In this document: positions 30,713 to 32,860 of the stretch, one piece after another | Numbering within the stretch: position 1 is the stretch's first letter | Layout: each line of letters begins with the position of its first letter | Assembly: GCF_053078305.1 (NCBI RefSeq) | Contig: NZ_CP166879.1 | Strand: one strand, 5' to 3' | DNA length: 64,000 nt | The notes under the pieces: model-generated | Told to the model about the DNA's origin: nothing | The model's database searches: none | What the model saw: the letters and a program-made list of their open reading frames with translations, nothing else | Translations under genes and position numbers: made by a program

Positions 30713-32860
30713 ATGAAAAAAGTCGTCACGGTTTGCCCCTATTGCGCATCAGGTTGCAAAATCAACCTGGTCGTCGATAACGGCAAAATCGTCCGGGCGG
30801 AGGCAGCGCAGGGGAAAACCAACCAGGGTACCCTGTGTCTGAAGGGTTATTATGGCTGGGATTTCATTAACGATACCCAGATCCTGACCCCGCGCCTGAA
30901 AACCCCCATGATCCGTCGCCAGCGTGGCGGCAAACTCGAACCTGTTTCCTGGGATGAGGCACTGAATTACGTTGCCGAGCGCCTGAGCGCCATCAAAGAG
31001 AAGTACGGTCCGGATGCCATCCAGACGACCGGCTCCTCGCGTGGTACGGGTAACGAAACCAACTATGTAATGCAAAAATTTGCGCGCGCCGTTATTGGTA
31101 CCAATAACGTTGACTGCTGCGCTCGTGTCTGACACGGCCCATCGGTTGCAGGTCTGCACCAATCGGTCGGTAATGGCGCAATGAGCAATGCTATTAACGA
31201 AATTGATAATACCGATTTAGTGTTCGTTTTCGGGTACAACCCGGCGGATTCCCACCCAATCGTGGCGAATCACGTAATTAACGCTAAACGTAACGGGGCG
31301 AAAATTATCGTCTGCGATCCGCGCAAAATTGAAACCGCGCGCATTGCTGACATGCACATTGCACTGAAAAACGGCTCGAACATCGCGCTGTTGAATGCGA
31401 TGGGCCATGTCATTATTGAAGAAAATCTGTACGACAAAGCGTTCGTCGCTTCCCGTACAGAAGGCTTTGAAGAGTATCGTAAAATCGTTGAAGGCTACAC
31501 GCCGGAGTCGGTTGAAGATATCACCGGCGTCAGCGCCAGTGAGATTCGTCAGGCGGCGCGGATGTATGCCCAGGCGAAAAGCGCCGCCATCCTGTGGGGC
31601 ATGGGTGTAACCCAGTTCTACCAGGGCGTGGAAACCGTGCGTTCTCTGACCAGCCTCGCGATGCTGACCGGTAACCTCGGTAAGCCACATGCGGGTGTTA
31701 ACCCGGTTCGTGGTCAGAACAACGTACAGGGTGCCTGCGATATGGGCGCGCTGCCGGATACGTATCCGGGATACCAGTACGTGAAAGATCCGGCTAACCG
31801 CGAGAAATTCGCCAAAGCCTGGGGCGTGGAAAGCCTGCCAGCGCATACCGGCTATCGCATCAGCGAGCTGCCGCACCGCGCAGCGCATGGCGAAGTGCGT
31901 GCCGCGTACATTATGGGCGAAGATCCGCTGCAAACTGACGCGGAGCTGTCGGCAGTACGTAAAGCCTTTGAAGATCTGGAACTGGTTATCGTTCAGGACA
32001 TCTTTATGACCAAAACCGCGTCGGCGGCGGATGTTATTTTACCGTCAACGTCGTGGGGCGAGCATGAAGGCGTGTTTACTGCGGCTGACCGTGGCTTCCA
32101 GCGTTTCTTCAAAGCAGTTGAACCGAAATGGGATCTGAAAACGGACTGGCAAATCATCAGTGAAATCGCCACCCGTATGGGTTATCCGATGCACTACAAC
32201 AACACCCAGGAGATCTGGGATGAGTTGCGTCATCTGTGCCCGGATTTCTACGGTGCGACTTACGAGAAAATGGGCGAACTGGGCTTCATTCAGTGGCCTT
32301 GCCGCGATACTTCAGATGCCGATCAGGGGACTTCTTATCTGTTTAAAGAGAAGTTTGATACCCCGAACGGTCTGGCGCAGTTCTTCACCTGCGACTGGGT
32401 AGCGCCAATCGACAAACTCACCGACGAGTACCCGATGGTACTGTCAACGGTGCGTGAAGTTGGTCACTACTCTTGCCGTTCGATGACCGGTAACTGTGCG
32501 GCACTGGCGGCGCTGGCTGATGAACCTGGCTACGCACAAATCAATACCGAAGACGCCAAACGTCTGGGTATTGATGATGAGGCATTGGTTTGGGTGCACT
32601 CGCGTAAAGGCAAAATTATCACCCGTGCGCAGGTCAGCGATCGTCCGAACAAAGGGGCGATTTACATGACCTACCAGTGGTGGATTGGTGCCTGTAACGA
32701 GCTGGTTACCGAAAACTTAAGCCCGATTACGAAAACGCCGGAATACAAATACTGCGCCGTGCGCGTCGAGCCGATCGCCGATCAGCGCGCCGCCGAGCAG
32801 TACGTGATTGACGAGTACAACAAGTTGAAAACTCGCCTGCGCGAAGCGGCACTGGCGTAA
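30713..32860 (+). CDS. fdhF: Formate dehydrogenase H (selenocysteine-containing; in-frame UGA at 31130-31132 read as Sec140)
   Basis: ORFs 30713..31132 and 31181..32860 are in the same frame and separated only by the TGA; N-terminal CPYCASGCK Fe-S motif; SECIS hairpin directly 3' of the TGA. Confidence 0.9.
31130..31172 (+). other. Bacterial SECIS element (selenocysteine insertion stem-loop) of fdhF
   Basis: UGACACGGCCCAUCGGUUGCAGGUCUGCACCAAUCGGUCGGUAAUGGCG forms a stem-loop starting at the UGA. Confidence 0.75.

Follow-up and report, generated by a model that had tools for sequence, protein, structure and literature searches.

The fdhF gene of Escherichia coli is the founding and exhaustively studied example of bacterial selenocysteine (Sec) recoding. 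Its product, formate dehydrogenase H (FDH-H), is a selenoprotein with Mo-bisMGD and a 4Fe-4S cluster and serves as catalytic subunit in formate hydrogenlyase. The E. coli genes fdnG and fdoG, like fdhF molybdopterin formate dehydrogenase genes, use the same mechanism, a SelB-binding hairpin directly 3' of an in-frame UGA, as does Rfam SECIS_3; the hairpin differs in sequence from the fdhF type, and the products FDH-N and FDH-O are periplasmic proteins of about 1,015 aa. Cys-type FdhF paralogues (CARVCHGPSVAGLQ...) of Enterobacterales and other bacteria have the same fold, family and motif CARV-x-HGPSVAGL, but carry TGC or TGT for TGA, are without the conserved GGUC-loop hairpin and are unconstrained at the synonymous sites. 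For a fragment of E. coli fdhF (130-179), experiments demonstrated that SelB binds and that Sec is inserted in dependence on SelB and tRNA(Sec): with the SECIS, 30-40 % of UGA140 was recoded as Sec both in vivo and in vitro, the remaining ribosomes terminated at UGA140, and SECIS removal impaired the read-through in reporter work (PMC4513850). According to the review PMC8659212, which draws on Liu et al. 1998 and Fourmy et al. 2002, SelB binding and read-through need a 17-nt apical stem-loop at a distance of 11 nt from the UGA, with the bulged U17 and the loop nucleotides G23 and U24.

The locus described here lies within a 64-kb stretch of DNA, in the following the window, and departs nowhere from the canonical, already known fdhF case. 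It agrees with E. coli K-12 fdhF/FDH-H (1AA6, 1FDO, 1FDI, 2IV2, 7Z0T) in gene, length, UGA codon 140 and SECIS sequence, and likewise in the putative sigma-54 type promoter, the terminator and the neighbourhood mdtNOP - fdhF - yjcO - gltP - nrf. The coding sequence (30713..32860, + strand) is a single frame of 715 sense codons with a terminal TAA stop at 32858-32860. Its translation has one internal stop, the UGA codon 140 at 31130..31132 (+ strand). The list of open reading frames splits the gene into 30713..31132 (139 aa) and 31181..32860 (559 aa), the latter starting at the internal Met157 (ATG 31181). Both parts share one frame because their starts are 468 nt apart (31181-30713 = 3 x 156); a frameshift between them was looked for in this offset and in the translation and is absent. 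The 575 codons downstream of UGA140 contain neither stops nor frameshifts. The sequence-only reading of this DNA had described two same-frame reading frames with a TGA as sole interruption, and its coordinates proved exact. We have hardly any doubt that the region is an intact fdhF of E. coli or a very close relative, in which UGA140 is read as Sec with the aid of a SECIS element. On the opposite strand, two long reading frames lie within the gene, 31217..31933 (- strand, 238 aa) and 30749..31162 (- strand, 137 aa), which are most likely shadow ORFs of a strongly codon-biased gene.

The translated protein, with the internal stop masked, matched the solved E. coli FDH-H chains 1AA6, 1FDO, 1FDI, 2IV2 and 7Z0T; with 1AA6_A it shared 714 of 715 residues (1668 bits). 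Exactly opposite the TGA codon 140, the codon for the Mo ligand Sec140, the PDB chain has its non-standard residue (X140). Alignment with known FdhF selenoproteins, proposed as a check in the sequence-only reading, thus placed the non-standard residue at the UGA. The sole difference from the crystallised enzyme is the conservative substitution E621D (Asp here, Glu there; codon 621 at 32573-32575), functionally no difference. The 4Fe-4S cysteines C8, C11, C15 and C42 are present, as are the active-site residues His141, beside Sec140, and Arg333, all as in the solved structure. With Sec entered as Cys, the NCBIfam equivalog model for the Fdh alpha subunit (TIGR01591) scored 1094.8 bits (cut-off 666.25), the match running unbroken across codon 140 (residues 6-685, profile positions 1-672 of 672). 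The periplasmic-type chain 1KQF matched the window protein at E 4e-45. Identities of the Cys-type FdhF proteins to the window protein were, among the matches listed, about 60-70 % for enterobacterial and 36-47 % for more distant ones.

Of 5,426 complete E. coli genomes, 5,419 had the 2.35-kb fdhF region, with 95-99.7 % DNA identity; since the best of them reached 99.7 %, not 100 %, over the gene region, the source strain is not one of these genomes. RefSeq annotates fdhF in them as one non-pseudo CDS of 2,148 nt, in some records with the product name 'formate dehydrogenase H subunit alpha, selenocysteine-containing'. Of 5,420 E. coli records, 5,418 had a 131-bp block round the UGA with an identity of 99 % or more. 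The sequence-only reading had taken the gene for an intact selenoprotein gene of roughly 715 aa rather than a pseudogene; the identity to the PDB chain and the single non-pseudo RefSeq CDS bear this out, so that its observation is confirmed and its interpretation supported, for a feature that was already known. Seven of the 5,426 complete genomes had no fdhF match, four matches were on records classed as plasmids, and one E. coli genome had two copies.

The annotated neighbourhood is canonical as well, with the phn operon, yjcS, mdtNOP, fdhF, yjcO, gltP, nrfA-G, acs-yjcH-actP and soxRS. Genes for the recoding machinery (selA, selB, selC, selD) were not among the annotated neighbours in the 64-kb window, nor were any tRNA genes, tRNA(Sec) included, found in it. 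In E. coli, selA, selB, selC and selD map elsewhere on the chromosome, and the strain presumably carries functional copies of all four. Several repeat elements accompany the region. The gap of 756 nt between yjcO (32954..33643) and gltP (34400..35713, - strand) is filled by six tandem REP-type elements at 33648-34285 (- strand; Rfam naRNA4/CssrE matches, 65-81 bits). The presence of this REP/BIME array depends on the strain, because the same gap measures only about 77 nt in E. coli AMSHJX01 (L001). A second REP-type (naRNA4) array of five elements with a spacing of about 100 nt is located at 1678-2161 (+ strand, 86-111 bits), and two isolated copies are at 4638-4718 and 44819-44890 (both - strand). 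The Hfq-binding small RNA sraL (RyjA) was found in the soxR/soxS region (52128-52268, + strand, 153 bits).

Directly at the UGA, the Rfam model SECIS_2 (RF01988) matched a full stem-loop at 31125..31179 (+ strand) with basal, lower, middle and apical helices. The match covered model positions 1-55 of 55 with 87.1 bits at a gathering score of 70, and its E value was 7.1e-19 in a 2.5-kb search and 1.8e-17 for the whole window, far beyond chance. The hairpin sequence equals the SECIS_2 consensus at every position shown, and the Rfam gathering scan of the 64-kb window gave no SECIS match other than 31125-31179. Assignment to SECIS_3 (RF01989) was rejected, as the locus reached no more than 35.8 bits where gathering requires 63. 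Numbered with the U of UGA as +1, the minimal 17-nt SelB-binding apical hairpin GGUUGCAGGUCUGCACC occupies +15 to +31 (31144..31160, + strand) and begins 11 nt past the UGA, with 31133-31143 as intervening nucleotides. The bulged U17 corresponds to 31146 and the loop GGUC to 31151-31154, with G23 at 31152 and U24 at 31153. The assignment to the classical fdhF SECIS, made in the sequence-only reading, therefore holds, the RF01988 score being above gathering and the published determinants (PMC8659212) standing at the right positions. That reading had also placed the hairpin directly behind the TGA: a stem-loop is there and its SelB-binding apical part starts 11 nt past the UGA, but the lower stem of the modelled hairpin starts earlier, taking in the A of the UGA and 5 nt upstream.

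The minimum free energy (MFE) fold of the 55-mer 31125-31179, (((((..((.(((((.((.(((.(((....)))))).)).)))))))...))))) at -19.7 kcal/mol, was identical to the SECIS_2 consensus structure. Its stability had a z-score of -1.23. The shorter segment 31130-31175, proposed for folding in the sequence-only reading, folded with -14.9 kcal/mol (z = -1.33), and 22 of 200 shuffled sequences folded at least as well. Thus the SECIS structure was reproduced with the 55-mer, but the stability of the shorter segment was not significant. Overall, thermodynamic stability of the hairpin is unexceptional (z = -1.2 to -1.7), and because these z-scores are unremarkable, the folding check would not settle the hairpin. 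Its support comes from the covariance-model match and the comparative data, not from stability.

For the comparative data, one genome per species was scanned with the pattern TGYGCNCGNGTNTGNCAYGGNCC, which stands for C-A-R-V-[TGN]-H-G-P. It accepts TGA, TGC, TGT and TGG and is thus neutral between Sec, Cys and Trp. At least 120 loci matched, of which 119 matches were analysed; the counts are those of a sample, not of a census. Eight of the 119 were chance matches outside formate dehydrogenase genes, including one with TGA and two with TGG, and were removed by requiring the downstream formate dehydrogenase peptide motif. The 111 homologues among the matches listed comprised 50 with TGA and 61 with TGC or TGT. 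Protein identity of the TGA-type set to the window FdhF ranged, among the matches listed, from 55 to 99.7 %, and its sources were Escherichia, Citrobacter, Enterobacter, Hafnia, Edwardsiella, Morganella, Pasteurellaceae and a Coriobacteriales MAG. All full-length homologues of at least 72 % identity among the matches listed had TGA and the hairpin; Cys was found in none of them. According to the sequence-only reading, a Cys codon combined with loss of the hairpin in close orthologues would have spoken against recoding; this combination did not occur in close orthologues among the 111 homologues of the matches listed.

The Cys-type genes among the matches listed had about 70 % identity or less, save one fragment of 153 aa at 75 %, and form a more distant clade. 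They often share a genome with a Sec copy, as in Citrobacter werkmanii (L003/L004) and Enterobacter sp. Bisph1 (L006/L007), and because of this frequent coexistence the Cys forms are regarded as paralogues and not as Cys-converted orthologues. In many Enterobacterales, the Cys-type paralogue found beside the Sec-type fdhF shows the motif CARVCHGPSVAGLQE/A-TLGNG, at an identity of 64-70 %; such loci include L004, L007, L009, L014, L016, L019, L025, L039, L046, L055, L062 and L064. Pluralibacter gergoviae combines two copies of the Sec type (L054, L056) with one of the Cys type (L055). The most distant TGA-type gene among the matches listed, with 55 % identity, belongs to the Coriobacteriales MAG (L067, match 723-745). 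It keeps GGUC at the same distance from the UGA with a different stem, GUCGUC GGUC UGAUUGAC, and its MFE fold does not fit the enterobacterial SECIS model; its hairpin may be a differently built SECIS.

Both sets differed clearly in the RNA behind the codon. The apical loop GGTC was present in all 50 TGA-type genes among the matches listed and variable in the Cys set, and the apical helix was paired to 95 % in the TGA set versus 52 % in the Cys set (among the matches listed). Across the 20 modelled pairs, 90.5 % of the cells were paired in the 32 distinct Sec-type sequences among the matches listed, a value reached by none of 500 shuffles, and sliding the 3' partners by 1-3 columns lowered the pairing to 23-50 %. 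In the Cys set, pairing amounted to 62.9 %, which did not exceed that of shuffles (351/500). The columns of U17, G23 and U24 were invariant across all 32 distinct Sec-type sequences among the matches listed. Synonymous sites were compared in genes with the identical peptide HGPSVAGL after the codon, 47 with TGA and 45 with Cys among the matches listed. The codons +6 to +8 (Ala-Gly-Leu) were GCA GGT CTG in 47 of 47 TGA genes, an entropy of 0, versus 1.6-1.9 bits for the same codons in the 45 Cys genes. Other synonymous sites of the TGA set vary freely, namely Pro+3 at the bulge position of the model (H = 1.40) and Asn+14 in the internal loop (H = 1.00), and so do the flanking sites Ala-3 (H = 1.46) and Ala+16 (H = 1.56). 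Because unpaired and flanking synonymous sites vary in this way, the uniformity of the TGA set is not merely a matter of too close relationship. Changes on both sides of a pair were seen in only 2 of 20 pairs, a count no higher than in shuffles (226/500). The main compensatory changes were the replacement of G20-C36 by U-A and a shifted register of the U-A pair in Pasteurellaceae, and the MFE fold missed the model in several distant, yet genuine, Sec-type homologues. With so few compensatory changes, the comparative support is mostly conservation and not covariation: what the fdhF hairpin shows is purifying selection on the RNA, tied to the UGA, and not strong covariation.

If the TGA were a nonsense mutation, fdhF would be a pseudogene from which only the 139-aa fragment or an internally initiated 559-aa fragment (ATG 31181) is made. 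This would agree with the cut that naive ORF calling makes in the gene and with the partial termination at UGA140 that occurs even in the wild type, where recoding is only 30-40 % (PMC4513850). However, the TGA falls exactly where the crystal structures have the active-site Sec, it is kept in 50 of 50 Sec-type homologues down to 55 % identity among the matches listed and is conserved in essentially all E. coli genomes, the 575 downstream codons run without stop or frameshift and match the solved enzyme save one residue, and the SECIS is intact, with RF01988 above gathering. A loss of function by nonsense mutation is thereby effectively refuted, and we give it practically no chance. Frozen synonymous sites speak against another explanation, by which a near-cognate tRNA (Trp/Cys) or a suppressor reads the UGA independently of the hairpin and the hairpin is a by-product of coding constraints: these sites are fixed only in combination with TGA and are free in Cys genes coding for the same peptide. 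Part of the hairpin sequence is indeed fixed by conserved amino acids, and the hairpin stability is not significant versus shuffles, both of which such a read-through would accommodate. Against it are also the SelB-contact nucleotides U17, G23 and U24, invariant in the Sec-type set among the matches listed, and the impaired read-through of reporters after SECIS removal (PMC4513850). Read-through of this kind is exceedingly improbable.

Recoding of UGA140 as Sec would proceed at this locus as in established work on this very sequence, from which SelB binding, Sec insertion and the catalytic role of the product are adopted here; the frame, the UGA, the hairpin with its determinants, the identity with the solved selenoprotein and the UGA-linked selection on the RNA were all observed at the locus itself. 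Ribosomes on the fdhF mRNA would reach UGA140 while the RNA immediately 3' folds as the SECIS hairpin. The C-terminal domain of SelB would bind the apical 17-nt stem-loop with its GGUC loop and bulged U, and SelB, loaded with GTP and Sec-tRNA(Sec), would be tethered 11 nt downstream of the UGA. From there it would compete with RF2 in supplying the A site with Sec-tRNA(Sec), and translation would run on to the stop at 32858-32860. The expected product is the 715-aa FDH-H of about 80 kDa, in which Sec140 would ligate Mo in the active site beside His141 and Arg333; failed recoding would release a fragment of 139 aa. A second role of the UGA-SECIS unit beyond Sec insertion, either as an expression valve or through a functional 139-aa fragment, seems unlikely to us. 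As a valve, scarcity of Sec-tRNA(Sec) would cause stalling or termination at codon 140, and an uncoupling of transcription and translation would then lower the downstream fdhF mRNA; such a selenium-responsive lowering of fdhF mRNA is reported for a Treponema primitia fdhF (PMC3892789). Alternatively, the 139-aa 4Fe-4S piece from failed recoding might have a role of its own. No feature of the 64-kb window points specifically to the valve or to a role of the 139-aa fragment.

Several signals flank the gene. A putative Shine-Dalgarno sequence GGAG (30701..30704, + strand) precedes the ATG at 30713 by 8 nt, and a candidate sigma-54 -24/-12 element TGGCATAAAAGATGCA (30646..30661, + strand) is located 52 nt upstream of the start codon. 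The element at 30646-30661 was the only match of the pattern TGGCAYNNNNNWTGCW in the 64-kb window, a result not significant alone, as one or more matches also turned up in 35 of 100 shuffles. Expression of fdhF depends on sigma-54 and FhlA, and position and type of the element agree with this dependence. A repeat search revealed a candidate FhlA upstream activating region at 30553..30593 (+ strand), about 55-95 nt upstream of the -24 element, with direct copies of TTTCGTCA at 30553-30560 and 30585-30592, 32 nt apart, and an inverted pair CTGACGA/TCGTCAG at 30569-30575 and 30587-30593. These repeats are plausibly the FhlA enhancer. An FhlA-binding consensus was not found in PMC7658346. Downstream, the terminator scan placed a strong intrinsic terminator of fdhF at 32874..32902 (+ strand), 14 nt past the stop codon; its GC-rich stem of 9 bp, ACAGCCUCC/GGAGGCUGU, leads into a U-run. 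Matches to the RNA families STnc130 (19.5 bits) and Atu_Ti3 (18.8 bits) at 32864-32998 were far below gathering and dismissed; the terminator hairpin alone explains both.

For genome annotation, this locus calls for one selenoprotein gene of 715 codons with a translation exception at codon 140, and neither for two reading frames nor for a pseudogene. The contrast between Sec-type fdhF and its Cys-type paralogues is a clean demonstration that the RNA signal freezes synonymous sites only when the codon is UGA, a dependence that is expected from existing knowledge.
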